From contig JAVQXK010000001.1 of assembly GCA_033578305.1 (NCBI GenBank), positions 1 through 42,630 of the forward strand: DNA of 42,630 nucleotides, read 5' to 3'. The notes below the pieces were generated by a model that was not told the origin of the DNA, did no database searches, and was given only the letters and a program-made list of their open reading frames with translations. Each line of letters opens with the position of its first letter. The stretch's first letter is position 1. Positions 3,353 to 41,783 of this stretch are shown one piece after another. The DNA comes from Bacteroidia bacterium. GTDB taxonomy: Bacteria; Bacteroidota; Bacteroidia; JANWVE01. The position numbers and the translations under genes are program-made.

Positions 3353-3724
3353 TTATTCCCACTTTAATACATCTCTTTTAATAATGTAATAAAAACCCAC
3401 TAAAAGCAGTGCCATAAAAGTAAACATTTCAAAAAAACCGAACCAGCCTAACTCCTTGAAATTTACTGCCCAAGGATACATAAAAATAATCTCTACATCA
3501 AACAAAACAAATAAAATAGCAATCAAAAAGTACTTGATGGAAATCGGTGTGCGCGCATCTCCTATTGACTCTACCCCACATTCCCAGGCTGCATTTTTTA
3601 CTTGACTTCTACGCTTAGGACCAATCAAATGCGTTACCACCATAGTAACAATTACAAATGCCACTGCCAAACCAAATTGAATAATGATAGGCAAGTAATC
3701 AGAAGGAAGATAGGTTTTTTCCAT
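3353..3724 (-). CDS. nuoA: NADH-quinone oxidoreductase subunit A
   Basis: 123 aa, three TM helices, with the NuoA/ND3 signature region PISIKYFLIAILFVLFDVEIIFMYPWAV. It stands alone, far from the other nuo genes. Confidence 0.85.
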   Translation of the reverse strand: MEKTYLPSDYLPIIIQFGLAVAFVIVTMVVTHLIGPKRRSQVKNAAWECGVESIGDARTPISIKYFLIAILFVLFDVEIIFMYPWAVNFKELGWFGFFEMFTFMALLLVGFYYIIKRDVLKWE

Positions 3725-3892
3725 AATAAGAACGTATTATTTTTTATTGTTTTTTATGGCTTGCAAGTTACGCATTTGCTTACACACAAGCAAAAAAGTT
3801 GTGCAAAGTTTTGTAGATTTATCATTGCTCTAAATAGTTTTTGTATTTTTGGCAATTCTTTTGCACGCGTTTCTAATTTTTTCGCTTTGTAT

Positions 3893-6316
3893 ATGCAAAC
3901 CTCAAACCATAGCCGTACTCACCAATCAATTGGCAAGTTGATTGATTTTAGATACAATAAAAGAAATACCGAATTGCACCTACAAGCTGAAAATGGTTTT
4001 GCAAAAGTGCTTGTTTATCATCCGCAAATAATTCGTATTACGCTTAATCGTACTACTGACCTTTGGGATTTTAGCTATGCCACTATTGTGCCACCTCTTG
4101 ATGATACACCCGCCCAAATTGCAGAAAGAAACGATAAACTTATCCTTACTACCTCAGATTTGAAAGTAGTCATTTACAAAAATCCACTTTTGTTTGCTTT
4201 TTACGATCCTAACGATTTACTTATCAATGCCGATGAGCCATTTAGCAACTCATGGCTTGGTGAGCAAATTTCTGCATATAAAACTTTACAACCTAACGAA
4301 AAATTCATCGGCTTGGGTGAGAAAACTGGTAATTTAGATAGAAAAGGTACAGGTTATACTAATTACAACACCGATTTTTTTGCTTATTATAGTGCAGCGG
4401 ACCCGCTTTATATTTCTACTCCTTTTTATATGGGCGTGCATAGCGGCATTAGTTATGGTATTTTTTTGGATAATTCCAGCAAAACGCATTTCAATTTTGG
4501 GGCTTCTAACGATAGGTTTGCTTCTTTTACCGTAGAAAGTGGAGACTTGAACTACTATTTTATTTACGGTAAAACCATTGCCAAAAATATTGAACTCTAC
4601 ACCTACCTTACAGGACGCATGGAACTCCCTCCGCTTTGGAGCTTGGGCTACCATCAATGCCGATATAGCTACTATCCTGACAAAGAAGTCTTGAATATTG
4701 CTCGCACTTTCAGAGAAAAGCAAATCCCTGCCGATGTCATTTATTTGGATATTCACTATATGCAAAATTACAAACTCTTTACTTGGAGTAAAGAGCATTT
4801 TGCCGAACCTCAAAAATTGATACAAGCCTTACAAGCATTAGGTTTCAAGGTAGTCGTAATTATTGACCCAGGCATTAAGGTAGAGCAGGAATATGAAACC
4901 TACCAAAAAGGTGTTCAAGCAGATGTATTTTTGAAATATCCTGACGGCACCTATTACACAGGGCAAGTGTGGCCTGGGTGGTGCCATTTCCCTGATTTTA
5001 CTAATCCGAGAGTACGCAAATGGTGGGGTGAACAATTCGCCGAATTAGTGCAGTTAGGCATTAAAGGCTTTTGGAATGATATGAACGAAATTGCTACGTG
5101 GGGCAACCGATTACCTGAATTGATTGAATTTGACTTAGAAGGACACAAAGCCTCCACGCGCCAAGCCCGTAATTTGTATGGCTTGCAAATGGCAAGGGCT
5201 ACTTTTGAAGGAATAAAAAAACTGCTGCCCCAAGAGCGAACCTTCCATCTCACAAGAGCAGGATTTTCAGGTGTTCAACGTTATGCTTGTGTTTGGACGG
5301 GTGATAACGTTGCCACTGATGAACATTTGCTTTTAGGAGTTCGTTTGGTGAATAGTATGGGCCTTGCAGGTTTGTGTTTTGCAGGATACGACGTAGGAGG
5401 CTTCGTAGGAGAAGCCTCTAACCAACTATTTGCCAAATGGATAAGCATAGGAGCTTTTTCTCCTTTTTTTAGAGGGCATAAAGAAGTCAATACCGCTTCA
5501 GCAGAGCCTTGGACAAAAGGCAGACAAACCGAAGAAATTGCCCGTAATTATATCAGCCTCCGCTACCGTTTAATACCTTACATCTATTCGCATTTTTACG
5601 AAAGTACACAGAATGGTTTGCCCATTCAGCGAAGTTTAGCCATTGACTATACACACGACGATTTGATTTATCACCCTAATTACCAAAACCAATATCTTTT
5701 TGGCAAAAGTCTGCTCATTTGTCCTAATGAAAGCTATCACCAATTTACCAAAGTGTATTTGCCTGAAGCCTCTGCTTGGTATTATTGGTATGACGGCAAA
5801 GTATTTGAAGGCAAACAAGAAATCGTGGTAGAGTCTCCTGTCCATCAATTACCTATTTTTGTAAGAGCAAGTGCCATTATTCCTATGCAATCGCTTACGC
5901 AACATTTGAGCGAAAAGCCTGAAAAAACCTTACACTTGCATATCTATTTTGGGCAAGAAACCAGCGAATTTTTATATTACGAAGATGATGGTACAAGCTA
6001 TGAATACAAACAAGGCAATTTCTACAAACGCCTTATTCGCTTTGAGCCACAAAAAAGAACCCTCTCTTTTGAACCAGCCGAAGGTAATTACACCTCGCAT
6101 TTTGAGAAACTGAAAATCTATTTTCACCACTTTCAGCAAATTAGCCAAGATGTAAAAATCAACGGAAAATTACAATCCGTACACCCTGAAGAGGTACAAT
6201 TTATCAAAGCCATTTCCAGTTTTGACCCTATGGGAAAAACCTATCCTGAAGTTAAAACACAAGCCAAAACCATAGAAATTTTGAATACTACTCAAAAAAT
6301 TGAAATAATTTGGTGA
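3893..6316 (+). CDS. Glycoside hydrolase family 31 alpha-glucosidase (cytoplasmic; no signal peptide)
   Basis: GH31 motifs GFWNDMNE (catalytic-nucleophile region), WTGDN and RGH are present. The ORF track opens at 3602 and overlaps nuoA; the first plausible start is ATG 3893 (MQTSNH). Confidence 0.85.
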   Translation: MQTSNHSRTHQSIGKLIDFRYNKRNTELHLQAENGFAKVLVYHPQIIRITLNRTTDLWDFSYATIVPPLDDTPAQIAERNDKLILTTSDLKVVIYKNPLLFAFYDPNDLLINADEPFSNSWLGEQISAYKTLQPNEKFIGLGEKTGNLDRKGTGYTNYNTDFFAYYSAADPLYISTPFYMGVHSGISYGIFLDNSSKTHFNFGASNDRFASFTVESGDLNYYFIYGKTIAKNIELYTYLTGRMELPPLWSLGYHQCRYSYYPDKEVLNIARTFREKQIPADVIYLDIHYMQNYKLFTWSKEHFAEPQKLIQALQALGFKVVVIIDPGIKVEQEYETYQKGVQADVFLKYPDGTYYTGQVWPGWCHFPDFTNPRVRKWWGEQFAELVQLGIKGFWNDMNEIATWGNRLPELIEFDLEGHKASTRQARNLYGLQMARATFEGIKKLLPQERTFHLTRAGFSGVQRYACVWTGDNVATDEHLLLGVRLVNSMGLAGLCFAGYDVGGFVGEASNQLFAKWISIGAFSPFFRGHKEVNTASAEPWTKGRQTEEIARNYISLRYRLIPYIYSHFYESTQNGLPIQRSLAIDYTHDDLIYHPNYQNQYLFGKSLLICPNESYHQFTKVYLPEASAWYYWYDGKVFEGKQEIVVESPVHQLPIFVRASAIIPMQSLTQHLSEKPEKTLHLHIYFGQETSEFLYYEDDGTSYEYKQGNFYKRLIRFEPQKRTLSFEPAEGNYTSHFEKLKIYFHHFQQISQDVKINGKLQSVHPEEVQFIKAISSFDPMGKTYPEVKTQAKTIEILNTTQKIEIIW

Positions 6317-6455
6317 CTCTCACACAAATAAGGCCTGAAATTTTAGGCTGATTAAGGTGAATTGCTTAATATCACAAATAACAATTTTATCCAGCCTTGT
6401 ACTAAAAAAACGAGAGAAAATTAAACTTATTTAGACTAATTCTAATCAGTTTTTG

Positions 6456-6467
6456 TAGATTTGCACC
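6456..6467 (+). promoter_or_regulatory. Putative -7 promoter box TAGATTTGCACC (Bacteroidota TAnnTTTG type) for the imelysin-like gene
   Basis: Matches TAnnTTTG with the recurring TTTGCAC extension, about 40 bp upstream of ATG 6508. Confidence 0.4.
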
Positions 6468-6507
6468 TAAAATATGCTTTCTGGTATTTTACTTATTCAT
6501 ACAAAAG

Positions 6508-7629
6508 TTGATTGAAACCATGGAAAAAATTTTTCTCTCGTTAAGTGCTACTACCCTGTTATTGTTTAGCGTCATTTCGTGTAAAACACACAAAGAAAAC
6601 AACCCTTCGGATAAATTTGATAGAACACAAATGTTAGAAAACTTTGCTCAAAACCTCATAAAACCTGCTTTTCAAGATTTGCAAAGCAAAGTAAATGCCT
6701 TAAAAGCCGCTACCGATAACTTTGTACAAACTCCTAGTGCCACTAATTTGTCTATCTTACAAAATACTTGGGAAAATGCTTATCTCTCTTGGCAATATGC
6801 TAATGCTTACAACTTTGGCCCTGCAGGTGAGGAAGGCATACGCAAAAGTTTGCTAGAAGAAATTGGCACCTTTCCTATAAGCCCTACCAAAATAGAAAAT
6901 GCCATTGCTAATAATAATGCTAATTTCAATGATTTTAACCGCGATGCACGCGGATTTTTAGCTATTGAATATTTAATTTTCAATTTTAATAATGATAACC
7001 AAGCTGTTTTGAATAGTTTTAATAATGCTAACCGTCGCAGTTTTTTGGTAAATGCCGTAAATAATCTCAAAACTCGTGTGGATGAGGTTGCTAACGCATG
7101 GAATGGTAGTTATGCTTTGGAATTTGTGAGTAATACAGGTACGGACATAGGCAGTAGTACTTCACAACTTTACAACGAATTTGTGAAAAGTTTTGAAAGT
7201 ATTAAAAACTTCAAAGTTGGCTTGCCTTTGGGCAAACGACCAGGGCAGACCCAACCCGAACCTGCTCGCGTAGAAGCTTATTATTCAGGCAAATCTCTCG
7301 CTATGATTGAAGCTCACTTGCAAGCTATTGAAAATATTTGGTATGGCAAAGCCAAGGAAGGGCAAGATGGTATTGGCTTTAAGGAATATTTACAAAACGT
7401 AGAAGGTGGGCAGGCTCTTATCTCCTCCACTGAAGCTCAATGGGCGATGGTGAAAAATAGTTTTAGAGCTATTCCTACGCAAATACGGCTTTCTGTACAA
7501 ATTCAACATTCCCCACAGGTAATTGATAATTTTCATACTGAATTGCAAAAACATACACGCTTTTTCAAGGCAGATATGAGTTCGCTATTAGGCATTACTA
7601 TTACTTTTAGCAGTGGCGATGGAGATTGA
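6508..7629 (+). CDS. Imelysin-like (peptidase M75 family) lipoprotein
   Basis: Signal peptide with lipobox (LLLFSVISC). Region W.NAYLSWQYANAYNFGPAGEEG and a later EYLIFNF segment resemble imelysin/IrpA-type proteins. Confidence 0.55.
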   Translation: MIETMEKIFLSLSATTLLLFSVISCKTHKENNPSDKFDRTQMLENFAQNLIKPAFQDLQSKVNALKAATDNFVQTPSATNLSILQNTWENAYLSWQYANAYNFGPAGEEGIRKSLLEEIGTFPISPTKIENAIANNNANFNDFNRDARGFLAIEYLIFNFNNDNQAVLNSFNNANRRSFLVNAVNNLKTRVDEVANAWNGSYALEFVSNTGTDIGSSTSQLYNEFVKSFESIKNFKVGLPLGKRPGQTQPEPARVEAYYSGKSLAMIEAHLQAIENIWYGKAKEGQDGIGFKEYLQNVEGGQALISSTEAQWAMVKNSFRAIPTQIRLSVQIQHSPQVIDNFHTELQKHTRFFKADMSSLLGITITFSSGDGD

Positions 7630-7816
7630 CTTTCCTAAAATGCTATTTTGTCATAAAAAAGTACAAAAATTGACAAAATGGCATTAAGATTTCTAATTCT
7701 GGGCTAGCGGTATATAAATTGTTAAAACAAAGGTGTATGGGTAATAAACCCAAAACTTACAACAAACAAAAACTTATTTCAAACTTATTGTTAAACCTCT
7801 AAACCTCTTAAAAGTT

Positions 7817-8242
7817 ATGTCAATCATTAGATTTAATCGTAGTTTTCCTTTTTCTAACTTTTTAGAAGACTTTTTTGGAAAAGATTTAATACATTTTCCA
7901 CAAGTAGAGCAGAACGTTCCTTCTGTAAACATTATAGAAAATGAAAATGGCTTCCGTGTAGAAGTAGCTGCTCCCGGCTTGAAAAAAGAGGACTTTAAGG
8001 TAAGCATTGATAACAATGTCCTCACTATTTCTGCAGAAGCCAAACAAGAAAAAGAAGAGAAAAATGAACGCTATACTCGCAGAGAGTTTAGCCATACTTC
8101 ATTCCAACGCTCTTTCACTTTGCCTCAAACTATCGAAATAGACCAAATTGATGCTAAATACGAAGATGGTATTTTGCACATCAATTTGCCTAAAAAAGAA
8201 GAGGCTAAACCTAAACCTACTCGCGTAATAAATATCAGCTAA
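7817..8242 (+). CDS. Hsp20/alpha-crystallin family small heat-shock protein
   Basis: 141 aa. Alpha-crystallin-domain hallmarks: VNIIENENGFRVEVAAPGLKKEDFKVSIDNNVLTISAE ... RSFTLPQTIEIDQIDAKYEDGILHINLPK. Confidence 0.9.
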   Translation: MSIIRFNRSFPFSNFLEDFFGKDLIHFPQVEQNVPSVNIIENENGFRVEVAAPGLKKEDFKVSIDNNVLTISAEAKQEKEEKNERYTRREFSHTSFQRSFTLPQTIEIDQIDAKYEDGILHINLPKKEEAKPKPTRVINIS

Positions 8243-8264
8243 TTAGGGTAAGAATGAAATATTC

Positions 8265-8297
8265 CCCACTTTTTCAAAGTGGGGATTTTTTTTTTTG
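8265..8297 (+). terminator. Rho-independent terminator after hsp20
   Basis: CCCCACTTT-TTC-AAAGTGGGG (9-bp stem, 3-nt loop) followed by an 11-nt T run. Confidence 0.8.
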
Positions 8298-8307
8298 CAG
8301 AGGCAGC

Positions 8308-10683
8308 TTATTGTTTTACTACTTTTAAGGTAGTGATTGGCTTGCCACCTCCTATAATTTGGATAAAATACACCCCTGTTTTTTGATTTTTGAAAATTTG
8401 ACTAAGATTTTGTGAAGCCTGCTCTTGTGTGCCTTCTGTGTGCTGAATAAGTTGCCCTTGGACATTTTGAATTTTGAAGGCATATTTTTGGTTAGGTTCT
8501 AATCCGTCCAAATGAATGACCTCTGCTATTGGGTTAGGGTAGAGGCTAATTTGAGTGTAATTTTGGGCTTTTTCTACAAATGCCACAGGGCTATATTCGT
8601 AGCTACCGTCAAAGTCAATTTGTTTCAAGCGGTAGTAACCTGCCAAAGGATTGTTTATGTTTAAGGTGTAATTTTTAGGTATATTTGTACTGCCTGCACC
8701 GTCAGCAAAGGCAATTTTGGTAAATTCTTTCAAATCGGGGCTAAATTCTATCTCAAAACCTTTGTTGTTGATTTCTTGGGCGGTTTGCCAAGTGAGGCGA
8801 ACTTCGGGGCTTGTCAGATAAGTTCGCTCTGCTTTGAAACTCAGCAAAGTAATGGGTAATTGGGCATTGCTGTCGTTGCCCAAACTCCAAGAGGAGAAGG
8901 TCGTTTGAGCAGAATTAGTGCAAATAGGAGAACCTAAGCTCGTACAACTTACAGAGGTTGCGATAAATTCCCAGCCTAACATACTTGACCAACGATAGAC
9001 ACGATTTAAGGTAAGGCTATTCGGATTTTCCTCTGCGGTAGGCATACGGAAGCCGATAGTGGTTGGGTTAGCTCCTACGCTTGGGCTACTTAATTGATAG
9101 ACTAAACGAATACCTACCCCATTATTTGCAGTATAATGATAACGACGTACTTGCAAATCGTTGTAACTACCCGCAGAGGTTTGCAAATACACACCTAACC
9201 CTGCAATTTGAGTAGTACCAGTATTGACTGTTCTGCCTGTAGCTTCAATGTAGCCGCCTTTCACGCCTGTGTCCGTAGTGGCAGTTAAATCTTTGATAAG
9301 ATGTTGTGAGGCAATATTTTCGGCGATGCTCCCTGTTGAGCCTAAGGATATGTTAAATCCATTTAGGTTCAAATCACCTTGGATAAGGGTAACTGTACCA
9401 CTTACAGTAATATTCTTATTCAAATTTACACGATTAGCGGCCCCTGTATTGATAATGAGGTTGTTCATAGTAGTTACTCCTGTGGGAAAACCTGCATCTT
9501 GGTTGGCACTTGGGTTATTAAATTCATAGTTTGCTCCTGCATTGTAGGTTTGTGTACCTGAAACGATAATACTTGCCGAAACACCACTTGTATTGGCAGT
9601 GCGAAGAGTTGCTCCTGAACCTAATGTGAAACTGCCTGAGCCTAAAACAACTCCTGTGGTGTTGGTGTTGAGAGTTCCATTCACTGTAATATCTGTACCT
9701 GTGCCATCGTTAGCAGTTAAAGTTACACCATTATTCACGGTTAGCGTACCTCCTGAATTTATAGTAAGTTGGTCAAGTGTAATGTTGTTGGTTACGGTTA
9801 TATTGTGTCCATTTTGTATTTGGATTGCATTAGAAGATATGGAAGGGAAAAAGTTTGCATTATACCAAGTAGAGCCATCAAGAGAGGCTTCCCAAGAGGC
9901 GGTAGCGTTCAAGTTACCTGAGGTTTTACTTCTAAACTGCACATCAAGTGGCTGAATTATTAAGTTATCAAAATTCATTGTACCGACTTCACCTGAAAAA
10001 AGAAATTTAATTTGATTGAGGGGAACTGTACTTGTTGTTACAGAGGCTTCATTAAGTTCTCTTGAAGTTCCAACCCAAACGTCCCATCTGTCGTCAGCAA
10101 CTGTTTCACTTGTACCATCTGGAGCTGAGTAAGTTAAAGTAGCCCCTGAGTTGTTAATTACCCATGTAATGGTTTGTGTACCTGAATATGCGTTGGGTGC
10201 ATTTGTACCTCCAGCTACGTCGCGTAATCTAAATTGATTAGCATTTACAAAGTTAAAAGCGAGGCGTGAATGCACATTTGCATTTGGGGGAGTGGCATTA
10301 TCATTTGTTTGGCTTTGACCCACATACATTGTGGCAGCGCTTGTAGCACTTGCAGTAGTGGTAACATTTAAGTCAAATTGAATATGCAAAGCTGATGGTG
10401 TAGGGCTAAAATTTACATTTCTTACAAAAGCACCTGAATTACCTGTTCTTACAAAATTAAGTGTCCCTGATGAAACGTCAATTGTCATTCCTATACCTGA
10501 TGATGCCAAAGCGGTAAACTGTGTATTATTGGGTGTAGCACTTGCGTACGTACCTGTTGTAACGGTAGAGTTGCTAAAAGAAGCTAGGTTCGTACTAAAA
10601 TCTTGAACTAATAACTGCCCCCAAGCCGTGTTCACGAGCAGAACTAAAACCAAAACCCAAAGACCTTGTAAAAAAGATTTCAT
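8308..10683 (-). CDS. Large secreted protein with beta-helix-like Thr/Asn/Gly-rich repeats and a C-terminal T9SS (Por) sorting domain
   Basis: N-terminal signal peptide. Long runs of TLTVNNGVTLTANDGTGTDITVNGTLN-type repeats. The C-terminus (ISLYPNPIAEVIHLDG...GVYFIQIIGGGKPITTLKVVKQ) is typical of a T9SS C-terminal domain. Confidence 0.75.
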   Translation of the reverse strand: MKSFLQGLWVLVLVLLVNTAWGQLLVQDFSTNLASFSNSTVTTGTYASATPNNTQFTALASSGIGMTIDVSSGTLNFVRTGNSGAFVRNVNFSPTPSALHIQFDLNVTTTASATSAATMYVGQSQTNDNATPPNANVHSRLAFNFVNANQFRLRDVAGGTNAPNAYSGTQTITWVINNSGATLTYSAPDGTSETVADDRWDVWVGTSRELNEASVTTSTVPLNQIKFLFSGEVGTMNFDNLIIQPLDVQFRSKTSGNLNATASWEASLDGSTWYNANFFPSISSNAIQIQNGHNITVTNNITLDQLTINSGGTLTVNNGVTLTANDGTGTDITVNGTLNTNTTGVVLGSGSFTLGSGATLRTANTSGVSASIIVSGTQTYNAGANYEFNNPSANQDAGFPTGVTTMNNLIINTGAANRVNLNKNITVSGTVTLIQGDLNLNGFNISLGSTGSIAENIASQHLIKDLTATTDTGVKGGYIEATGRTVNTGTTQIAGLGVYLQTSAGSYNDLQVRRYHYTANNGVGIRLVYQLSSPSVGANPTTIGFRMPTAEENPNSLTLNRVYRWSSMLGWEFIATSVSCTSLGSPICTNSAQTTFSSWSLGNDSNAQLPITLLSFKAERTYLTSPEVRLTWQTAQEINNKGFEIEFSPDLKEFTKIAFADGAGSTNIPKNYTLNINNPLAGYYRLKQIDFDGSYEYSPVAFVEKAQNYTQISLYPNPIAEVIHLDGLEPNQKYAFKIQNVQGQLIQHTEGTQEQASQNLSQIFKNQKTGVYFIQIIGGGKPITTLKVVKQ

Positions 10684-10941: not shown

Positions 10942-10953
10942 TTATATTTGCAC
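10942..10953 (+). promoter_or_regulatory. Putative -7 promoter box TATATTTGCACG for nuoL
   Basis: Exact TAnnTTTG match, 41 bp upstream of ATG 10994. A TTTG lies 12 bp upstream of it. The same 15-mer GTTTATATTTGCACG recurs at 35892-35906. Confidence 0.5.
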
Positions 10954-12919: not shown

Positions 12920-12946
12920 AAGTATGTAGTTTTCTGAAAATAAGCA

Positions 12947-13270
12947 ATGATTACCAAACGCAAAGTACCCAAAAATTTGGTTTATGAAATTGCCGAAGGA
13001 AAACCTATTTTTTACAAAGGCTATAAAGAAGCATTACAAAATAAAAAAAGCATAGAAAATGTAGTGGGTTCAAGTGCTTTGCAAAGTTTTATCATTGGAA
13101 AATTATCAGGATTTTTATGGCAAAAACTTAGCAAAGACTATCAAATTTTTACCAACGAAGTAGGTATTCAATTAGAGAAAAGTACACGTACTTGTAATAT
13201 AGCTATTTTTGAAAAAATACAATTACAAGGCTATGTTTTGCAGGAATTGATAGATTTGCAGAAAAACTAA
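12947..13270 (+). CDS. Short Uma2-family (DUF820-like) putative endonuclease ORF, probably truncated
   Basis: 107 aa. YEIAEGKPIF... and ...CNIAIFEKIQL resemble the N-terminal half of Uma2-family proteins (the YELIDGEL and PDvAvf regions). The C-terminal half is missing. It sits between nuoL and nuoM. Confidence 0.35.
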   Translation: MITKRKVPKNLVYEIAEGKPIFYKGYKEALQNKKSIENVVGSSALQSFIIGKLSGFLWQKLSKDYQIFTNEVGIQLEKSTRTCNIAIFEKIQLQGYVLQELIDLQKN

Positions 13271-13302
13271 AAAATATATGCAGAAACATAACTGAATAAA
13301 AT

Positions 13303-26755: not shown

Positions 26756-26763
26756 AAGGTTAT

Positions 26764-29406: not shown

Positions 29407-29644
29407 AAATTATATAAAGTGTAACAAGCTCTTATTCAAAGAGATCTTGCATGTATTTGAATAAAAAATAAACATACATCAGCCTACTTTTCAGTAAATA
29501 AAAACTACGATTTGATATTGAATTTGCACCTTAAATATGGGTGCATTTTTTTCTTGCTTTTCAAGCATAAATAAAAAATTGTGTATTTTAGCACCCCAAA
29601 AACTATCTTTTCTGATTGAAACCAACACTAAAGTACACATACTC

Positions 29645-31585: not shown

Positions 31586-31796
31586 TTTTACACAAACCTC
31601 CTCTATCCTCAAAATTTAGAGTTTGTGAACAGAGAAAACCCTCATTTACGAGCTGACATCTTTCAAAATCAACCCCTCATAAAGAGGCCTCTGTTCATAA
31701 ACTCTAATGTGTTCAAGCAAAGGGCAAGACAAAAATCCTACATCATTTTTTTTTCGCATATTTGTAGATACATTTGCCCTTATTTAAAAAAGCTAT

Positions 31797-33893: not shown

Positions 33894-33901
33894 AAAGACA
33901 A

Positions 33902-33938
33902 AACCTATAAAGTTAGCCAAAACTTTATAGGTTTTTTT
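33902..33938. terminator. Bidirectional intrinsic terminator between the convergent S41 peptidase and T9SS cargo genes
   Basis: AACCTATAAAGT-TAGCCAAA-ACTTTATAGGTT (12-bp perfect stem) followed by TTTTT on the + strand and a T-rich tract on the - strand. Confidence 0.8.
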
Positions 33939-33965
33939 AGAATAAATCAAAACAAATGATTATCC

Positions 33966-35864
33966 TTAAAATACTACAAAGCGCTCTATCCAAACCTGTT
34001 CCTGACTTTGAACTTTAATTAAATACATACCTTTTGGCAAATTATTTAACAAAATTTCAAATCTATCACCCTCAAAATAAGCAGTTTCTACCAATACATT
34101 ACTCATGTTATAGATGCTTACTTCTTTTCGTAAATTTCGGCTCTGCCTATCGTGAACTATAATCTTGTCAGTGGTAGGATTAGGATATATCTCAAAATCA
34201 GCCGTTTGTAGATTTTCTACCTGCAATACTTCCCAAGAAGAGAAATCCACTGAACCATCAGTATTAACAATTTTTATCCTATAATATTGCGTACCTACCT
34301 GCAGATTTCTATCTGTGAAGCTATACTTTTGCGTAGGGGTAATATTGCCTTCGGCTATCACCTTACCAAAGTTTTCAATTGTTTCTAAATCATAGCTTTT
34401 TTGAACTTCAAAATGACTCACATTTTTGTCTGAACGAGCAGCCCACTGCAAAAGAGCAGTATGATTACTTTGCTGAACCTTAAAATAAGCTAATTCAATT
34501 GGCAAAGGATCTGAAGAAAGTACTAAATGACAATTAACTATGCTACAAGATCCTCCTGCAGTTCCTGTTGAACTACATGAACCATTACAATCCAATCCTG
34601 GATTACCAGGATTGCTTGTTATAATCATATTAGCAGGAACAGGGGTTGTCAATATAATAGCTCCTAAACCACCTCCTCCCCCGCCTCCATGAACAACACT
34701 ATGAACTACATTACCTCCATTTCCACCATTTACACGTACATATAAAGGATTAGCTGCACAAGGTAAATTATAATTATTCACACGTAAAACAACTACTCCA
34801 CCAGCTCCACCACCGCCACCTGCATCAAAACCTGTGGAATGTTCACCAGGGTTACCACTAGCGTCTATGCTATAGCTCGTGGTGCAAGTTGGAGGAATAG
34901 CTAATGTGTTAGCACTAATGAAAATAATACCTCCACCATTGCCACCATTCCCTCCCATACTATTATTTTGTTGACCACCACCACCACCGCCGCCCAAAAA
35001 TAAGCGTTTGGCAGGTGAACTATAATAAGTTTGTAAAGAGATGCCTCCTACCCCTCCATACAAGCCTGATGTACTAAAACCGCAGGCACCATTCCAACCA
35101 TTTCCACCTCTACCTCCTGAAGTGTAGTTTCCACCGCCGCCACCGCCACCATTATGGTCATTTCCACCACCGCCACCATTTACCAAAGCACCTTTGGCAT
35201 ACATATCAGAGGTATAAGCAGTTATACCCTCCCCTTTTTGCCCAAAACCAATATCACTGCTCCTAAATGTAGTTTGGTCAGCACAAGTATTGCGATTGTT
35301 ACTCCTTAAGCCACCCCTAAAACCACGCCCCACAGCAGAGATATTCCCATTCAAAGTAACTGTTCCTGTAGCAGAAAGCACCAATATACCTCCTCTTTCT
35401 AAATTTGTGCTCCAGTCGCGAGCTTGAATACCTGATGCTCCTACAGTCACGTTAGTATATTCAGGTACACTCACAATTTGTACTGAACCACTTACATTGT
35501 ATGTATTCTTTAAAGTCTCTACTTTTATTTGTGAAGAGGTACAAGCACTACAAGATACTACTTTTGTCCACTCAAAAAGTCCTGCACTTTGTATACCATT
35601 CACTACCAAAGTACCATACGTAGCATCGTTAGCTGTATTGATTACTGCTCCTTTCATTTGAATAATCATTATTGTTTTACCTACAGCAAAGTCGGCTGTA
35701 CTCGTACCACCAGTAGGATCTATTACATTGTCAAAAGTAAGTATTTTATTAGGTACATCAATAGCTGTTACCCTTGCATATGTGTTAATAATACCTGATA
35801 TAGTTTGAGAAAAACTCCTACTTAGTGAAATAAAAAGTACAACAAAAAATAGTATTTTTTTCAT
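33966..35864 (-). CDS. Glycine-rich secreted protein with a T9SS C-terminal sorting domain
   Basis: Signal peptide. A central region of about 170 aa is dominated by poly-Gly/Asn tracts (GGGGGNDHNGGGGGGGNYTSGGRGGNGWNG, LFLGGGGGGGQQNNSMGGNGGNGGG, VHGGGGGGGLG). The C-terminus (FEIYPNPTTDKIIVHD...MYLIKVQSQEQVWIERFVVF) resembles a T9SS C-terminal domain. Confidence 0.7.
   Translation of the reverse strand: MKKILFFVVLFISLSRSFSQTISGIINTYARVTAIDVPNKILTFDNVIDPTGGTSTADFAVGKTIMIIQMKGAVINTANDATYGTLVVNGIQSAGLFEWTKVVSCSACTSSQIKVETLKNTYNVSGSVQIVSVPEYTNVTVGASGIQARDWSTNLERGGILVLSATGTVTLNGNISAVGRGFRGGLRSNNRNTCADQTTFRSSDIGFGQKGEGITAYTSDMYAKGALVNGGGGGNDHNGGGGGGGNYTSGGRGGNGWNGACGFSTSGLYGGVGGISLQTYYSSPAKRLFLGGGGGGGQQNNSMGGNGGNGGGIIFISANTLAIPPTCTTSYSIDASGNPGEHSTGFDAGGGGGAGGVVVLRVNNYNLPCAANPLYVRVNGGNGGNVVHSVVHGGGGGGGLGAIILTTPVPANMIITSNPGNPGLDCNGSCSSTGTAGGSCSIVNCHLVLSSDPLPIELAYFKVQQSNHTALLQWAARSDKNVSHFEVQKSYDLETIENFGKVIAEGNITPTQKYSFTDRNLQVGTQYYRIKIVNTDGSVDFSSWEVLQVENLQTADFEIYPNPTTDKIIVHDRQSRNLRKEVSIYNMSNVLVETAYFEGDRFEILLNNLPKGMYLIKVQSQEQVWIERFVVF
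34665..35182 (-). repeat. Low-complexity GGN-codon tracts encoding the poly-Gly region of the T9SS cargo protein
   Basis: The + strand shows repeated CCACCGCCGCCACC-type runs. Homopolymeric codon repeats like these are prone to slippage. Confidence 0.7.
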
Positions 35865-35894
35865 TGCTAACTAGTTTTTTTTAGTAACGTGTGT

Positions 35895-35906
35895 TTATAT
35901 TTGCAC
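35895..35906 (+). promoter_or_regulatory. Promoter-like box TATATTTGCACG with no ORF downstream (identical to the nuoL -7 box)
   Basis: The 15-mer GTTTATATTTGCACG at 35892-35906 equals 10939-10953. No ORF follows on the + strand. It faces the bidirectional terminator at 36054-36087, about 160-180 nt downstream. Confidence 0.35.
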
Positions 35907-36053
35907 GGGTTAGTTTGATTGTATTTATATATGTTTATACGATAAAAGTACAAATGGTAAGCATAAATAATTTCTTAAAAACTTCTTTTTCTTCAAAAAT
36001 TGCTTAAAATGATTACTATTCCTAAATTTTTAACCTTAATTACTTAAACTATG

Positions 36054-36087
36054 AAAAAAAAACTCTTACCTTTCGGTAAGAGTTTTT
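36054..36087. terminator. Bidirectional intrinsic terminator downstream of nuoG
   Basis: An A9 run, then CTCTTACC-TTTC-GGTAAGAG, then TTTTT. On the - strand the hairpin is followed by T9, giving a strong terminator for the nuoH...nuoG transcript. Confidence 0.85.
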
Positions 36088-36113
36088 AGTATTTTACTAC
36101 TATTTTTAGATAG

Positions 36114-37163
36114 TCATTTCTCAAATTTACTTTTAGTTACCTTATTCACTATTGCTGATTTTTCTAATGGAAGTTTAGAAGGTCGATGCTCATCATCAAT
36201 TTTTTTATATTGTGCTTCGGCTTGTCTAAAACCAAAATCAGGAACTAGTTTGTGTACTTTATGATTCTGAGCAATTACTGAGGTACGTTTAATATTAGCA
36301 TTTCCTTCAATTATCCAGTCAGAAGTTTTTTTCTTCTCAAAGCGGCAGGTATTACAAATGAAATCTTTTACTTCCCCATATTCATCCTTGCGTGCAGTAA
36401 CACGAAGCACCTCTGAACCTTGGTACCAAAGTATAACCTCTCCTTTACATTTATCACAATTTCGGTGAGCATTTACAGGTTTCGTAAACCAAACTCTACT
36501 CTTAAATCGGAAGGTTTTATCAGTTAAAGCTCCTACGGGACAGACATCTATTACATTTCCTGAAAAGTCGTTATTAATCACATTTTCAATATAGGTACCA
36601 ATCTCAGCAGCATCACCTCGTTTAAGAACTCCATGAACACGCTTATCTGTGATTTGATCTGCTACATAAACACAACGATAGCATAAAATACAGCGCGTCA
36701 TGTGAAGCTGTATTTTATCCCCAATATCTATTTTTTCAAAAGTTCTACGCTCTTCTTCATATCTTGTCCCTGAAACGCCGTGTTGGTAGCTAAGATCTTG
36801 TAAATGGCATTCACCTGCCTGGTCGCAAATAGGACAATCCAACGGATGGTTAATAAGTAAAAATTCTACCACTCCTCTACGCGCCTCTAATACTTCTTCA
36901 TTGATAGAATTTTCTACTACCATACCATCCTGCACAGCAGTAATACACGAAGGTACAAGTTTAGGCATTGGACGCGGATCCTTTGCAGAACTCTGCGTTA
37001 CTTTTACCAAGCAAGTACGGCATTTTCCACCACTTCCCTGTAGTTTAGAGTAATAACACATAGCAGGTGGTACGATATTGCCACCAATCATGCGAGCAGC
37101 TTGTAAAATAGTAGTACCTTGTGGGACATCTATTTGTATATTATCAATAGTTACTTTCAGCAT
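36114..37163 (-). CDS. nuoG: NADH-quinone oxidoreductase subunit G (short form lacking the molybdopterin-like C-terminal domain)
   Basis: N-terminal 2Fe-2S motif (C..GKCRTC), the His-ligated cluster HPLDCPICDQAGEC, a 4Fe-4S motif CILCYRCVYV, and CPVGALT. 349 aa. Confidence 0.8.
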   Translation of the reverse strand: MLKVTIDNIQIDVPQGTTILQAARMIGGNIVPPAMCYYSKLQGSGGKCRTCLVKVTQSSAKDPRPMPKLVPSCITAVQDGMVVENSINEEVLEARRGVVEFLLINHPLDCPICDQAGECHLQDLSYQHGVSGTRYEEERRTFEKIDIGDKIQLHMTRCILCYRCVYVADQITDKRVHGVLKRGDAAEIGTYIENVINNDFSGNVIDVCPVGALTDKTFRFKSRVWFTKPVNAHRNCDKCKGEVILWYQGSEVLRVTARKDEYGEVKDFICNTCRFEKKKTSDWIIEGNANIKRTSVIAQNHKVHKLVPDFGFRQAEAQYKKIDDEHRPSKLPLEKSAIVNKVTKSKFEK

Positions 37164-37242
37164 AAGTATTAGGTTATTAGGGTTTGAATTATCTTCTTAT
37201 TTTTATTTCATATATTAGGTTTCTTTCAAAAAAAGGTTCAAA

Positions 37243-37461
37243 TCATATTAATTGCCTCGCTCCAAGAAGGCTGTTTTGTAATTTCTCCTCATTTTTTAGT
37301 ATATTTTTGCCATACTTGCGTTTTATATTTATATATAAGAATCCTTCCCAAATTTCATAGTCTCGCACAACTTCTTGCAATTTCTCAAAATCCTTTTTCT
37401 CCGCTGCCGAAGTTTTTACTTCTAAATTTTCGTGTGTAACGTTATTAAATAAAAAGAACAT
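37243..37461 (-). CDS. Hypothetical 72-aa protein in the slot where nuoF would be expected
   Basis: ORF MFFLFNNVTHENLEVKTSAAEKKDFEKLQ... with no recognisable similarity to NuoF. Coding status uncertain. Confidence 0.25.
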   Translation of the reverse strand: MFFLFNNVTHENLEVKTSAAEKKDFEKLQEVVRDYEIWEGFLYINIKRKYGKNILKNEEKLQNSLLGARQLI

Positions 37462-37628
37462 CAGGAGTAGGGCTTAACCTTTGTTTCATCTACCATCATT
37501 TCAGACAAGGGTTCAAAAGGAATTTTTCCTTGTCTATATAGCCAATCCGACCGTGCTATCAACTTGCGTATTACTCGTTGATGCTCTTTGGGAGCATTTA
37601 CTCCCGTTACCATTACGTCTAACATAAA

Positions 37629-38171
37629 CTAAATCCATTCAGTAGCTATCAATTCGTCAATTTTAGCAGGAGTAAGGTTTTCATAGTATTTGTAAGCTCC
37701 GTCCATACTTTTCAATTTTACTTGCAGGCAGGGGGCTCCCCCACACGCTGCTAAACATTCTACGGTTTTGAGAGTAAAGCGTTTATCAGGAGTAGTTTCG
37801 TTTACATGAATACCTAACTTCTGTTCCAAATACTCAAGAATTTCATCTGCCCCACAAATCATACATGGTCCTGTACGACAAACTTCTAATACATATTTGC
37901 CCACAGGTTCAAGGTGAAACATGGTGTAAAAGGTAGCCACTTCGTACACCTCAATTGGTTGGATATTTAGGAGCTCGGCTATGTAATCCATTACATTCAC
38001 ACTAATCCAACCGAATTGAGTTTGAGCGATGTGTAAGATAGGCAATATAGCCGATTTTTGCTTGCCCTCTGGGTAGCGTTTAATAATTTCTTGTACTTTA
38101 GCAAGATTCTCTTCTGTAAACTTTGCTCCCACGTGGTAGCTCCTGTCAGTATTAAAACGATAAGCAGACAT
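37629..38171 (-). CDS. nuoE: NADH-quinone oxidoreductase subunit E (24-kDa, 2Fe-2S)
   Basis: 180 aa with the four Cys arranged CRTGPCMICG...CLAACGGAPC typical of NuoE. Confidence 0.85.
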   Translation of the reverse strand: MSAYRFNTDRSYHVGAKFTEENLAKVQEIIKRYPEGKQKSAILPILHIAQTQFGWISVNVMDYIAELLNIQPIEVYEVATFYTMFHLEPVGKYVLEVCRTGPCMICGADEILEYLEQKLGIHVNETTPDKRFTLKTVECLAACGGAPCLQVKLKSMDGAYKYYENLTPAKIDELIATEWI

Positions 38172-38221
38172 TTTTTATTTTTAATCAGAATAATATTTTG
38201 AAATAATACTCTTTGTAACTC

Positions 38222-39484
38222 TTATGCATCAAGTTCTCCTGCAATTACGTTAAGGCTACTCATGGTTACTATTGCGTCAGAAAGTTGTTGCCCTACACAC
38301 ATTTCAGGATAGGCTTGATAATAGATAAAACAAGGTCTTCTAAAATGTAAGCGATATGGGGTACGTCCTCCATCCGAAATAAGGTAAAATCCTAACTCCC
38401 CGTTAGCACCTTCTACAGAATGATAAACCTCTCCTACTGGCGCATCAATTTCACCCATTATAATTTTGAAGTGATAGATCAATGCTTCCATTTTTGTATA
38501 AACATCTATTTTGGGCGGTAGATAGTAGCGAGAGTCATTAGCATAATAACTTCCTTCTGCCTTAGGCAATTTTTCTAAGGCTTGCTCAATGATGCGAAGG
38601 CTCTGCCACATCTCTTCATTACGTACCATAAAACGGTCGTAGCTATCACCATGTTGCCCAACAGGGATATCAAATTCAAAATCTTGATACCCTGAATAAG
38701 GGTTCATGACACGTACATCATAATCTACGCCTGTAGCTCGTAGGTTAGGACCTGTAAAACCGTAATTTATAGCCCTCTCTGCTGAAATAGCTCCCACCCC
38801 GATAGTTCTATCCATAAAAATACGATTTCGATTAAACAATTTTTCAAACTCCCGCATCACAGGAGGAAATTCTTTTACAAATTTCTTGATCTTAGCGAGA
38901 GCTGTTTCAGAAAAATCACGTTCCATGCCACCAATTCTACCCATGTTCGTGGTAAGTCTTGCCCCACATACCTCTTCATATATTTCGTAGATATGTTCGC
39001 GCTGCTGAAAAAGATATAAGAAACCCGTAAAAGCTCCTGTATCCACTCCTAAAATAGAATTACAAATTATATGGTCGGCGATGCGTGCTAGTTCCATCAT
39101 AATTACACGCATGTATTGTGCTTTTTGCGGAACTTGCACTCCTAAGAGCTTTTCTACTGTCATCCACCAACCCAGGTTATTGATAGGTGCAGAACAGTAA
39201 TTCAAACGGTCTGTAAGGGGAGTAATTTGGTAGAAAGGTCTGTGTTCTGCAATTTTTTCAAATGCTCTATGAATATAGCCAATTGTAGGTACTCCTGATA
39301 CTATTTTTTCCCCATCCATCTGTAAGACATTCTGGAAAACACCATGCGTAGCAGGATGTGTAGGACCTAAATTGACCGTAGTAAGTTCATTAAGATAAAC
39401 AGCATCTTCTACCACTAAATTTTTTGAACCTAGTTCCTTCAAAAGGGCTTCGTCTTTTTCTATAACCGCTAATTGATTTGCCAT
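38222..39484 (-). CDS. nuoD: NADH-quinone oxidoreductase subunit D (49-kDa)
   Basis: 420 aa. NuoD motifs LNLGPTHPATHGV, RIGGMERD and the C-terminal ...PCFIYYQA... region. Confidence 0.9.
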   Translation of the reverse strand: MANQLAVIEKDEALLKELGSKNLVVEDAVYLNELTTVNLGPTHPATHGVFQNVLQMDGEKIVSGVPTIGYIHRAFEKIAEHRPFYQITPLTDRLNYCSAPINNLGWWMTVEKLLGVQVPQKAQYMRVIMMELARIADHIICNSILGVDTGAFTGFLYLFQQREHIYEIYEEVCGARLTTNMGRIGGMERDFSETALAKIKKFVKEFPPVMREFEKLFNRNRIFMDRTIGVGAISAERAINYGFTGPNLRATGVDYDVRVMNPYSGYQDFEFDIPVGQHGDSYDRFMVRNEEMWQSLRIIEQALEKLPKAEGSYYANDSRYYLPPKIDVYTKMEALIYHFKIIMGEIDAPVGEVYHSVEGANGELGFYLISDGGRTPYRLHFRRPCFIYYQAYPEMCVGQQLSDAIVTMSSLNVIAGELDA

Positions 39485-39526
39485 ATTGTAGGTATTATAA
39501 AATAAATTTTTGAGCTTGCCTAAATA

Positions 39527-40033
39527 TTATCTACCAAAATATAAATCCTCTTTATCCCTGCGAGTAGCATCTTCTAAAGGATACTCTTTTCGCATGGGGT
39601 GATAATCCATATCATCTACATTCAAAATGCGTGTGAGGTTAGGATGTCCGTCAAAAATAATTCCATAAAAATCATAGGTTTCCCGCTCTTGCCAATTCGC
39701 TGAGGCATAAAGTTTAGTAAGGGTAGGTACTCTTGGATTTTCTATAGGTACAAAAGTTTTTACACGTAGATAGATATTATGTAGCCAACTATGCACATGA
39801 TATACTACACCGAGTTCCTTTCCTTTATTGTCAGGAAAATGTACGCCGCACAAGTCAGTTAGAAAACGAAACTGAAATTGCTTATGAAAAAATAAATATT
39901 CAAACAATTCAGGAATTTTTGCGGGCTCACACGTAAAGGTGAGCATACCATACGGCACTTCAATATCAGAAATGCTATTCCCAAATTGACTAATTAGGTC
40001 TTCTATAATAATTTGATGCGAAAGCTCTGCCAT
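39527..40033 (-). CDS. nuoC: NADH-quinone oxidoreductase subunit C (30-kDa)
   Basis: 168 aa. The ...WQERETYDFYGIIFDGHPNLTRIL... region is typical of NuoC. Confidence 0.85.
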   Translation of the reverse strand: MAELSHQIIIEDLISQFGNSISDIEVPYGMLTFTCEPAKIPELFEYLFFHKQFQFRFLTDLCGVHFPDNKGKELGVVYHVHSWLHNIYLRVKTFVPIENPRVPTLTKLYASANWQERETYDFYGIIFDGHPNLTRILNVDDMDYHPMRKEYPLEDATRRDKEDLYFGR

Positions 40034-40101
40034 GGATAATTTTTAGATTTGATTTTACTTTTACACCTAACTTAACAATATTCTTAAATCTTGGTTAGGT
40101 C

Positions 40102-40653
40102 CTAACTCACCTGAATATTATACGAAGCTAATAGCTTTTGATATTCCTCTGAGTTTCTGCGTCTAAGACTTTCATTTTTGGCTAATTCTTGGATTTTAAG
40201 CAATCCTTCAATAATTTGCTCAGGGCGAGGAGGACAACCTGGTACATAGACATCCACAGGTATTACACGGTCAATACCTTGCAAAACGCTGTATGTATCA
40301 AAAATCCCACCACTAGAGGCACATGCTCCTACGGCGATTACCCAACGAGGCTCTACCATTTGCTCATATACTTGACGCACCACAGGTGCCATCTTCTTGG
40401 CAATTGTTCCCATCACCATAAGTAAATCGGCTTGGCGTGGTGAGAAACTTGGCCTCTCTGCTCCAAAGCGGGCTATATCGTAGTGCGAACCCATCGTAGC
40501 CATAAATTCTATCCCACAGCACGAGGTAGCGAAGGGAAGAGGCCACAAGGAATTAGCGCGAGCTAACCCAATAACCTTATCAAAACTTGTGGCAAAAAAA
40601 CCTTGCCCTTGATAGCCCTCAGGAGCCTCTACCATTTTAGGAGTAACTGACAT
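40102..40653 (-). CDS. nuoB: NADH-quinone oxidoreductase subunit B (20-kDa, N2 cluster)
   Basis: Motifs [23 protein letters not shown] and PGCPPRP, which carry the Cys ligands of cluster N2. Confidence 0.9.
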
Positions 40654-40751
40654 ATATTTTTAAGTTTAGAAGTTTCACAATCAAAATACAGACTATACTT
40701 ATTAATGTAACTTGTGTATTATTCAAAATGTTTAACTTTCTAAGGCTAACG

Positions 40752-41783
40752 TTACCTTTGAAGGACTAACATAACGATTGCAGTAAGGAATATATTTAGG
40801 ATAGCTAGTGGTAAAAGCCCTTTCCAACCTAAGTTCATGAGTTGGTCATAACGGAAGCGGGGCAGAGTCCAGCGTACCCACATAAAGAAAAATACCCCAA
40901 ACAATCCTTTAACAAACAATACACCTACCCCAATCAATGTAGCAATATTTTGCCCTAAACTCTTTTCTATCCAGCTCATAAAAGGATAGGTATAACCTCC
41001 AAAGTACAAAGTAGCTATCACAATGCTAGAAATAAACATATTGATATACTCTGCAAACAGGTAAAAACCTAACTTCATGCTGCTGTATTCAGTGTGATAG
41101 CCACCAATTAATTCCGTCTCGCACTCAGGCAAATCAAAAGGAGTACGATTACATTCAGCAAAAGCACAAGTAAGGAAAATAATAAAGCCTAAGGGCTGAT
41201 AAAATACATTCCAAACAGTACGCTGTTGCTCTACAATTTCTCGCAAAGAGAGCGAGCCTGTCATTATGATTATGGCAACAATTGATAAGCCCATAGCTAA
41301 TTCGTAGCTAATATTTTGTGAAGCAGCACGAATTGCCCCCAAGAGGGAGAATTTATTATTTGAGGCCCAGCCCCCTATCATAATACCGTATACCCCCAAA
41401 GCCACAATAGCAAATACATATAAGATACCGATATTTGCCTCTACTGCCTGAATATTAAACTTGAAATCTCCAAACTGCAAGGTACCTCCAAAAGGGATAA
41501 CGGCACTAGTCATGCAAGCAGCTAACATTGCCATCGAAGGACCTGCAATAAACAGCCATTTGTTAGCTTGCATCGGAATAAACTCTTCCTTAAAAAACAT
41601 TTTAGCTGCATCGGCAATTGGTTGTAGTAAGCCCCAGGGGCCTGCTCGGTTCGGTCCTATGCGGTCTTGTAAGAAAGCAGCTACTTTACGTTCAGCGTAT
41701 GTAGAGTAGGTAGCTACCAAGAGAGTAATTCCAAATACAAGCAAGATAATTAAGCCTTTTACTAAAAAAAGTTCTAATGTCAT
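40752..41783 (-). CDS. nuoH: NADH-quinone oxidoreductase subunit H
   Basis: 343 aa polytopic protein. AERKVAAFLQDRIGPNRAGPWGLLQPIADAAK is the conserved ND1/NuoH N-terminal signature. It sits immediately upstream of nuoB, which is a non-canonical order. Confidence 0.9.
   Translation of the reverse strand: MTLELFLVKGLIILLVFGITLLVATYSTYAERKVAAFLQDRIGPNRAGPWGLLQPIADAAKMFFKEEFIPMQANKWLFIAGPSMAMLAACMTSAVIPFGGTLQFGDFKFNIQAVEANIGILYVFAIVALGVYGIMIGGWASNNKFSLLGAIRAASQNISYELAMGLSIVAIIIMTGSLSLREIVEQQRTVWNVFYQPLGFIIFLTCAFAECNRTPFDLPECETELIGGYHTEYSSMKLGFYLFAEYINMFISSIVIATLYFGGYTYPFMSWIEKSLGQNIATLIGVGVLFVKGLFGVFFFMWVRWTLPRFRYDQLMNLGWKGLLPLAILNIFLTAIVMLVLQR

Follow-up and report, generated by a model that had tools for sequence, protein, structure and literature searches.

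We analysed a 42,630-nucleotide stretch of DNA from a Bacteroidia bacterium (contig JAVQXK010000001.1, positions 1 to 42,630; hereafter the window), in which the nuo genes for respiratory complex I are scattered. Thirteen of these genes lie in five blocks on both strands (nuoA / nuoL-orf107-nuoM-nuoN / nuoJ-nuoK / nuoI / nuoH-B-C-D-E-[Uma2 pseudogene]-G), and nuoF was located on another contig of the same metagenome-assembled genome (MAG). We consider it very likely that the genes specify an ordinary 14-subunit NADH:quinone oxidoreductase (NDH-1) whose operon has decayed by repeated local rearrangement, each piece probably being served by its own promoter. The host would be an uncultured member of the Cytophagales related to Raineya and Thermonema. 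Its ancestral nuoA-N operon would have been dismantled by mostly local inversions, transpositions, and insertions, leaving 13 genes within 38 kb in five blocks and moving nuoF to a sixth locus.

Complete open reading frames (ORFs) of the 13 genes were found in the ORF listing and identified by Pfam and NCBIfam profile scans, which confirmed a preliminary description of this DNA as carrying 13 nuo genes on both strands in a non-canonical order. The features of the five blocks are listed below; L084 is a locus of a close relative that retains the canonical gene order.

3353-3724, minus strand: nuoA, block 1, solitary and divergent from a GH31 gene (PF00507, E 3e-36)
10994-12919, plus strand: nuoL, block 2 (PF00361, PF00662, and PF01010; 68% identity with L084 NuoL)
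12947-13270, plus strand: orf107, truncated relic of a putative Uma2-family endonuclease gene in the nuoL/nuoM gap, block 2
13303-14745, plus strand: nuoM, block 2 (PF00361; 71% identity with L084 NuoM)
14811-16208, plus strand: nuoN, block 2 (PF00361; matches the NuoN that ends canonical clusters)
24101-24424, minus strand: nuoK, second gene of the J-K pair, block 3 (PF00420)
24460-24972, minus strand: nuoJ, block 3 (PF00499; the ORF extends to 25011, and public gene calls start at 24972, giving 170 aa)
28909-29406, plus strand: nuoI, block 4, solitary between cheA and glgE (TIGR01971, 136 bits against a cutoff of 113)
36114-37163, minus strand: nuoG, block 5, short form of 349 aa that lacks the molybdopterin-like domain (PF13510, PF10588, and PF22117)
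37243-37625, minus strand: frameshifted pseudogene, putatively of the Uma2 family, block 5 (orf72, 37243-37461, and orf54, 37461-37625; recognised by homology to a 136-aa L084 protein)
37629-38171, minus strand: nuoE, block 5 (PF01257, E 1e-54)
38222-39484, minus strand: nuoD, block 5 (PF00346, E 9e-112)
39527-40033, minus strand: nuoC, block 5 (PF00329)
40102-40653, minus strand: nuoB, block 5 (PF01058)
40752-41783, minus strand: nuoH, first gene of block 5, directly upstream of nuoB (NF004741, 347 bits against a cutoff of 305)

The blocks are separated by 0.4-7 kb of unrelated genes per gap, and about 25 kb is interleaved in all. These genes, among them the glycogen genes, chemosensory module, transporter, and T9SS cargo genes of the preliminary description, encode a GH31 glycosidase, an imelysin, Hsp20, two proteins with type IX secretion system (T9SS) tails, a major facilitator superfamily (MFS) transporter, an HgmA-like cupin, GlgB, CheB, a CheC-like protein, a CheA-CheW fusion, GlgE, and an S41 protease. 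The map is not a contiguous one-strand array from nuoA to nuoN; it consists of separate blocks with unrelated genes between them. Six blocks and 14 subunits had been claimed. The window holds 13 of the genes in five blocks, as the order given in that description itself implies, and the figure of six stands only as a count of loci, the sixth being that of nuoF. No nuo paralogue was present within the window, and its GC content is even (0.31-0.40).

nuoF lies between nuoE and nuoG in every canonical relative, and it was not found in the window by tblastn with Runella NuoF. The window proteins occur on the NCBI contig JANWVW010000002.1 ('Bacteroidia bacterium') and on Logan contigs of sequencing run SRR15826902. 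A search with L084 NuoF retrieved the missing protein (P0125; PF01512 and PF10589) on contig JANWVW010000021.1 of the same MAG, GCA_025056095.1, as well as on a Logan contig from the same run. There, nuoF is solitary; helix-turn-helix (HTH), hypothetical, and flavin-reductase genes lie upstream of it, and a TonB receptor gene faces it. The same-strand Flavin_Reduct gene is 155 nt upstream of nuoF. With an intact nuoF on this second contig of the MAG, the full set of 14 genes can be regarded as present at six loci, and its placement in one organism rests on the binning. The window positions 1-1995 extend about 2 kb beyond the end of the 51,545-bp NCBI contig by coordinate arithmetic, and the homology tables give a 106,630-bp 'longest contig' for NuoH and NuoF alike. 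The window may derive from a longer assembly in which nuoF shares the contig.

Block 5 carries two small ORFs just upstream of the expected place of nuoF, orf72 and, between nuoE and orf72, orf54. Their homology to a 136-aa L084 protein spans three reading frames and includes an internal stop, so the two ORFs are one pseudogene. In L084, the counterpart is a single 136-aa gene between nuoE and nuoF; its homologues are labelled 'Uma2 family endonuclease' by JGI and NCBI and carry no precomputed Pfam domain. In the nuo operon of Campylobacter jejuni, two small genes unrelated to nuoE and nuoF stand in their place. The likeness is superficial, and a replacement of this kind was ruled out, as the two ORFs are one Uma2 pseudogene and an intact nuoF exists elsewhere. 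The other relic, orf107, was matched to residues 17-114 of a 208-aa Uma2 protein of L084 (41% identity over 98 aa, E 5e-25) by a search against the nuoL-nuoM interval. It is the N-terminal half of a Uma2-type protein different from the 136-aa one, in line with the label 'Uma2-like' that had been given to the gene between nuoL and nuoM. The 208-aa protein itself carries only a weak match to PF05685, the model of the Uma2 family of putative PD-(D/E)XK endonucleases, and orf107, orf54, and orf72, both copies being truncated or frameshifted, had no direct Pfam or NCBIfam match. Short Uma2-type homologues (about 136 aa) also occur in Emticicia, Arcicella, and related genomes, where they separate nuoE from nuoF in operons that are intact in all other respects (L012, L014, and L033, 10480-10641; L079, 1749-1907; L097). 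Because it is present in intact operons, the short Uma2 insertion would predate the fragmentation or be independent of it.

The Nuo proteins of the window are 68-85% identical over their full length to the L084 counterparts and 34-88% identical to cluster genes of other Bacteroidota (59-76% for NuoA with canonical Cytophagales clusters). All nine genes tested by codon comparison with L084, including nuoI and nuoJ-K, showed 84-95% identity at second positions and 37-47% at third positions; this combination of high and low identity indicates strong purifying selection on these genes. The ligand motifs of the iron-sulfur clusters are intact in the translations, namely CCxxE...C...CP of NuoB (cluster N2), the cysteines of NuoE and NuoG, and two CxxCxxCxxxCP motifs of NuoI. 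The 11 core subunits (A, B, C, D, H, I, J, K, L, M, and N) are all present by Pfam and NCBIfam, and the N-module is completed by NuoE and NuoG in the window and NuoF on the other contig. The short NuoG (about 349 aa) is the norm in all relatives examined. By content, and with purifying selection as the proxy for activity, the gene set would be that of a working complex I and not of a decaying one.

Three contigs of Logan, a separate assembly of run SRR15826902 made with a different assembler, were 100% identical to the window: L174 to 2407-9330, covering both nuoA flanks; L173 to 18909-37377, covering both flanks of nuoJ-K and of nuoI and the downstream end of nuoG; and L002 to 37635-42630, covering the junction of nuoH with the upstream SpoIIE gene. 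Since separately assembled contigs agree across most junctions, misassembly, which the preliminary description had named as a possible refutation, is unlikely. The scatter might still be taken for an artefact of assembly or binning, or for the remains of a decaying, non-functional complex I, given the MAG source, the departure of nuoF from its expected place, and the two pseudogenised small ORFs inside the blocks. We hold this to be extremely improbable, as the second assembly reproduces the junctions, all nuo ORFs are full length with cofactor motifs and nine are under purifying selection, an intact nuoF is in the same MAG, and the genes of relatives are scattered too, including those of an isolate, bacterium 336/3, on a 4.1-Mb contig.

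To place the arrangement among relatives, genomes were scanned with NuoE and the loci were mapped by tblastn, with about 10 kb of flank visible on each side. All 70 genome loci of Spirosomataceae, Crocinitomicaceae, other Cytophagales, and Flavobacteriales were canonical (A-B-C-D-E-F-G-H-I-J, with K-N next in some). The 80 metagenome loci mapped among the NuoH matches listed (63-74% identity) were also all canonical; they serve as background and have no bearing on close relatives. Together, 150 of 150 listed loci of more distant Bacteroidota (55-74% identity) kept the A-N or A-J order, in agreement with the earlier statement that bacterial nuo genes almost always form one operon, or two blocks in some Bacteroidota.

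All 15 loci of the closest relatives were fragmented or heavily interrupted, each differently. In the eight closest species by NuoE (Raineya sp., Thermonemataceae, Bernardetiaceae, and Cytophagales MAGs; 66-81% NuoE identity), nuoE was without exception unaccompanied by any other orthologous nuo gene within about 10 kb on either side. The closest NuoH homologues, looked up singly, gave the following loci (identities are to window NuoH).

L084, JGI 3300037311 (84%): canonical order D-E-F-G-H-I-J-K-L-M, all on one strand, interrupted by about 22 small genes
L175, JGI 3300020201 (80%): isolated G-H pair
L083, Raineya sp. (80%): solitary nuoH
L085, bacterium 336/3, isolate, 4.1-Mb contig (77%): solitary nuoH
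L169, GCA_026003275 (80%): solitary nuoH
L170, JGI 3300045921 (81%): solitary nuoH
L171, Logan ERR15087790 (82%): solitary nuoH

The tally of 15 is thus eight solitary nuoE, five solitary nuoH, one G-H pair, and one canonical but invaded operon. The preliminary description had called the fragmentation extreme. The exact arrangement of the window was indeed found in no other locus examined, but the window is no outlier, as fragmentation is typical of its lineage.

In a neighbour-joining tree of NuoH computed without support values, the window grouped with L084 and L175, and the sister group was a clade with solitary nuoH. If this tree is right, the break-up in the window would postdate the split from an ancestor with canonical order and would be independent of the dispersal of the Raineya type. 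Loci with 94-96% identical NuoH were syntenic over only 1.7-3.8 kb of the roughly 20 kb compared. Because loci with nearly identical NuoH share so few kilobases, fast rearrangement would be general in this lineage and not aimed at nuo, and the break-up of the operon would be its by-product, with no nuo-specific mechanism.

Three side observations concern the relatives. In a Thermonemataceae MAG (L006), a divergent 154-aa NuoA-like gene (9490-9954; 35% identical to window NuoA) was located 1.5 kb downstream of the solitary nuoE and followed by genes for a DUF7935 and a CAP-domain protein; it may be a remnant or part of a second complex I-like set. Loci of Spirosomataceae contain extra, distant nuoJ-like and nuoK-like genes (25-37% identity) that lie close to the main cluster but on the other strand (L015, 2221-2724; L022, 2300-2770; L046, 2221-2724; L054, 16059-16887), an indication that these genomes have a second cluster of complex I type or resembling Mrp. 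The Raineya genome paper treats subunits by presence and absence only and reports NuoE and NuoG as absent in Thermonema rossianum (PMC5982127); dispersal may explain this absence.

On the strand that carries the large block, the genes read +H +BCDEG -I +JK -(LMN) +A, and the backbone from B to N is still collinear. nuoI and nuoL-M-N would have been inverted in place, nuoH would have moved from the 3' to the 5' side of nuoB-G and nuoA to the far end, and the excision of nuoF from between the Uma2 pseudogene and nuoG would have been exact. By inversions alone, at least six are required, and no arrangement of six signed blocks needs more than seven; the path could be shorter if genes were transposed, or duplicated and then lost. 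Long repeats, insertion sequence (IS) remnants, and tRNA genes were absent from the block boundaries, where the only repeats were short, AT-rich, and promoter-like, and an Rfam scan of the window gave no match. The absence of boundary repeats, mobile-element scars, and tRNA genes, together with the even GC content, suggests that the events are old. Repeated rearrangement with insertions, as put forward in the preliminary description, is supported, and we regard it as the only reasonable origin of this order.

The inserts in L084 bear on how the breaks came about. This unusually invaded operon contains, all on the nuo strand, three Uma2-like genes, genes for DUF29, 23S_rRNA_IVP, UPF0150/HicB-like, and DUF4160/DUF2442 proteins, and hypothetical genes (1848-4095, 4772-5182, 6747-8652, 11048-13362, 17312-19162, and 20776-21029). 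Uma2 endonuclease genes and small genes resembling toxin-antitoxin (TA) genes might thus have invaded the gaps of the operon and caused the breaks, by cleaving DNA or as substrates of recombination. Both extra ORFs within the window blocks are putative Uma2 relics, one of them exactly where nuoF was lost, and the inserts of L084 lie between nuo genes in the same manner. We nevertheless give this little credence. Of nine junctions comparable between L084 and the window, the window was broken at three of the five with an L084 insert and at three of the four without; breakpoints at Uma2 or TA-like insertion sites were therefore rejected, and because the breakpoints do not fall preferentially at insert sites, a causal role of these genes is unsupported. 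In intact operons of the Emticicia and Arcicella relatives, the short Uma2 gene likewise occupies the gap between nuoE and nuoF, and no repeats were found at the block boundaries. Mobility or nuclease activity of Uma2 proteins was not documented in the literature consulted, where they are described as putative (PMC9403480).

A bolder reading arranges the Raineya- and Thermonema-related Cytophagales as a time series of operon death with at least two independent break-ups, seeded by Uma2 and TA-like invaders. The stages would run from an invaded canonical operon (L084) through partial blocks (the window and L175) to genes that are apparently all solitary (Raineya and bacterium 336/3). This is improbable as a whole. 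If it were true, the clade would be a test bed for operon persistence and for stoichiometry without operons.

The scatter might instead have been selected as an adaptive, modular rewiring in which the fragments are assembly or function modules (L-M-N as the distal pump; J-K; B-C-D with H and the E/G input; F beside a flavin reductase) that are regulated separately, or in which NuoF is shared with another enzyme. In complex I structures, the subunits B-C-D, J-K, and L-M-N contact each other, and the adjacencies kept in the window join exactly such subunits. nuoF does follow a Flavin_Reduct gene, and alpha-glucan genes lie beside nuoA, nuoJ-K, and nuoI and, each at a distance of about 3 kb, upstream of nuoH and near nuoF. 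However, the relatives cut the same modules otherwise (E alone, H alone, or G-H alone), so no module boundary is conserved; nuoH is grouped with genes of the Q and N modules, apart from A, J, and K; and the promoter elements are generic. Selection for such modules therefore seems to us quite unlikely, if slightly less so than the Uma2 route.

The promoter elements also bear on the reading that we prefer, in which an ordinary operon has fallen apart into separately transcribed pieces. The element TAnnTTTG, which we take to be the -7 element recognised by the sigma-A factor of Bacteroidota, was enriched in the window (99 occurrences against 68.7 expected). The following putative signals were located at the nuo blocks.

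3801-3807, minus strand: TTTGCAC, putative -7 element with one mismatch to TAnnTTTG, about 80 nt upstream of nuoA
10943-10953, plus strand: TATATTTGCAC, putative -7 box of the Bacteroidota type, 51 nt upstream of nuoL
25006-25016, minus strand: TACTTTTGTGC, putative -7-like box, 44 nt upstream of the nuoJ ATG (24972)
28810-28820, plus strand: TATTTTTGCAC, putative -7-like box, 99 nt upstream of nuoI
41813-41820, minus strand: AAAATTTG, putative -7-like element with one mismatch, 30 nt upstream of nuoH
36058-36087, minus strand: hairpin resembling an intrinsic terminator, with a 13-bp stem followed by a T run, 27 nt past the nuoG stop

Full boxes thus precede nuoL, nuoI, and nuoJ, and forms with one mismatch precede nuoA and nuoH. 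The hairpin is the probable end of the nuoH-G unit. Full TAnnTTTG+3 boxes also stand before the imelysin gene and one T9SS cargo gene; other TAnnTTTG boxes precede the S41 gene, cheA, and orf392, and near-matches precede glgE and cheB. The preliminary description had proposed TTTGCAC as a promoter box shared by the nuo blocks. This was ruled out: wherever it lies upstream of a gene, TTTGCAC is the 3' part of TAnnTTTG, it also precedes non-nuo genes, and its excess is marginal (18 occurrences against 10.7 expected, with 3 of 100 shuffles reaching 18). By its distribution, TAnnTTTG is a housekeeping promoter signal and not the mark of a nuo regulon. Consensus promoters of the sigma-70 type were as frequent in the window as by chance, as expected for Bacteroidota, and are uninformative. 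A perfect copy of the TATATTTGCAC promoter-like box was also observed at 35888-35907 on the plus strand, in the gap that separates nuoG from the T9SS cargo gene. This copy coincides in part with a small hairpin; the sole ORF that overlaps it on the same strand has 38 codons (35891-36007), and Rfam gave no match. It may be an orphan promoter or the start of a small RNA or antisense transcript.

The claim that several promoters would be needed is consistent with these elements. We infer six transcription units, each with a standard sigma-A promoter (-7 TAnnTTTG). The balance of the subunits would then be set after transcription, with promoter strength, translation strength, and the turnover of unassembled subunits as contributors. 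Subunit balance is assumed to be set after transcription in other organisms with dispersed complex I genes as well.

Complex I is the classic example of a large enzyme whose genes form a single long operon of conserved order, the canonical nuoA-N or nqo1-14 operon of E. coli, Paracoccus, and Thermus. The canonical operon, which is also that of Crocinitomicaceae and many metagenome loci, encodes the same 14 subunits as found here, with separate nuoC and nuoD. In contrast, the genes of the present organism occupy six loci on both strands, with nuoH before nuoB, solitary nuoA, nuoI, and nuoF, and foreign genes interleaved. The two-block arrangement of Spirosomataceae and other Cytophagales (nuoA-J, with K-N not adjacent) shares the short NuoG (330-350 aa) and, in some genomes, the short Uma2 gene between nuoE and nuoF; however, it has a single break and is otherwise canonical in order. 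Split complex I gene sets are documented in other phyla, with 'many examples' of prokaryotes that lack a single operon (PMC3144371).

One of the known systems lies within the same wider group as the window. Melo and co-workers are said to have described in 2005, for Rhodothermus marinus, two nqo operons with solitary nqo8 and nqo9 and with nhaD and pcd inside one operon. This relative within the Fibrobacteres-Chlorobi-Bacteroidetes (FCB) group reportedly has a functional complex I despite solitary H (nqo8) and I (nqo9) genes, but from four loci with nqo1-7 together, whereas here there are six, with A and F solitary as well and H re-attached before B. The ndh genes of cyanobacteria and plastids and the nuo genes of Aquifex aeolicus are dispersed, so that a complex I-type enzyme is made from many dispersed units, as proposed here. 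Cyanobacterial NDH-1 lacks NuoE, NuoF, and NuoG and has multiple D and F paralogues; unlike it, the standard 14-subunit set was found here, with one copy of each gene.

Several points weigh against an intact enzyme encoded by a broken-up operon. The source is a MAG, and the junctions flanking nuoL-M-N lie outside the compared Logan contigs. The assignment of the nuoF contig depends on MAG binning, on the shared run, and on its rank among the nearest matches to L084 NuoF (84%), and NuoF is too conserved for identity alone to assign an organism. The statement that there is a single set covers the window, and a second nuo cluster may lie elsewhere in the genome. The NuoH tree is of a single gene, so the number of independent break-ups is uncertain, and the loss of synteny was measured around nuoH only. 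The assembled enzyme, its promoters, and its transcription units are predictions from sequence.

Among the neighbouring genes, those of alpha-glucan and glycogen metabolism lie beside or near five of the six nuo loci. In the window, they are GH31 (3893-6316), GlgB (21728-23728), and GlgE (29537-31585); L088 carries GH57 at 5125-7599, about 3 kb upstream of nuoH, and L086 a T9SS alpha-amylase at 2944-7098, about 3 kb from nuoF. Canonical relatives had no alpha-glucan neighbours within the visible flanks. The proximity could be due to chance, or it could be a trace of a glycogen cluster that once stood beside the nuo operon and was shuffled by local inversions. A chemosensory module at 25112-28527 comprises CheB, a CheC-like 178-aa protein, and the CheA-CheW fusion. 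L088 contains SpoIIE phosphatases, response regulators, and a methyl-accepting chemotaxis protein (MCP) with PAS and HAMP domains at 1-3523 and 8426-9832, in a T9SS-bearing Cytophagales genome. The module is probably a non-flagellar Che-like pathway. A 392-aa ORF (16781-17959, minus strand), just downstream of nuoN on the opposite strand, belongs to no Pfam or NCBIfam family; several membrane spans, a coiled-coil-like Q/K-rich middle part, and an HTH-like C-terminal end were predicted. The HgmA-like cupin gene (20336-21514) was the only non-nuo gene of the window found near a canonical cluster, as its 73%-identical homologue in a Cytophagaceae MAG (L021, 9485-10645) is located about 1 kb downstream of nuoJ (7892-8392).

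The complex I enzyme itself is nothing new. What is new is the lineage, the degree of scatter (six loci here, while in sister genomes the genes seem to be solitary throughout), and the intermediate stages. For annotation, dispersed nuo genes in drafts and MAGs of this group may be mis-scored as missing subunits. An operon that dissolves through intermediate stages in sister genomes while its genes stay under purifying selection would mean that co-transcription is dispensable for a 14-subunit machine, and the group would allow comparisons useful to models of how operons are maintained, of the constraints set by assembly order, and of genome fluidity.

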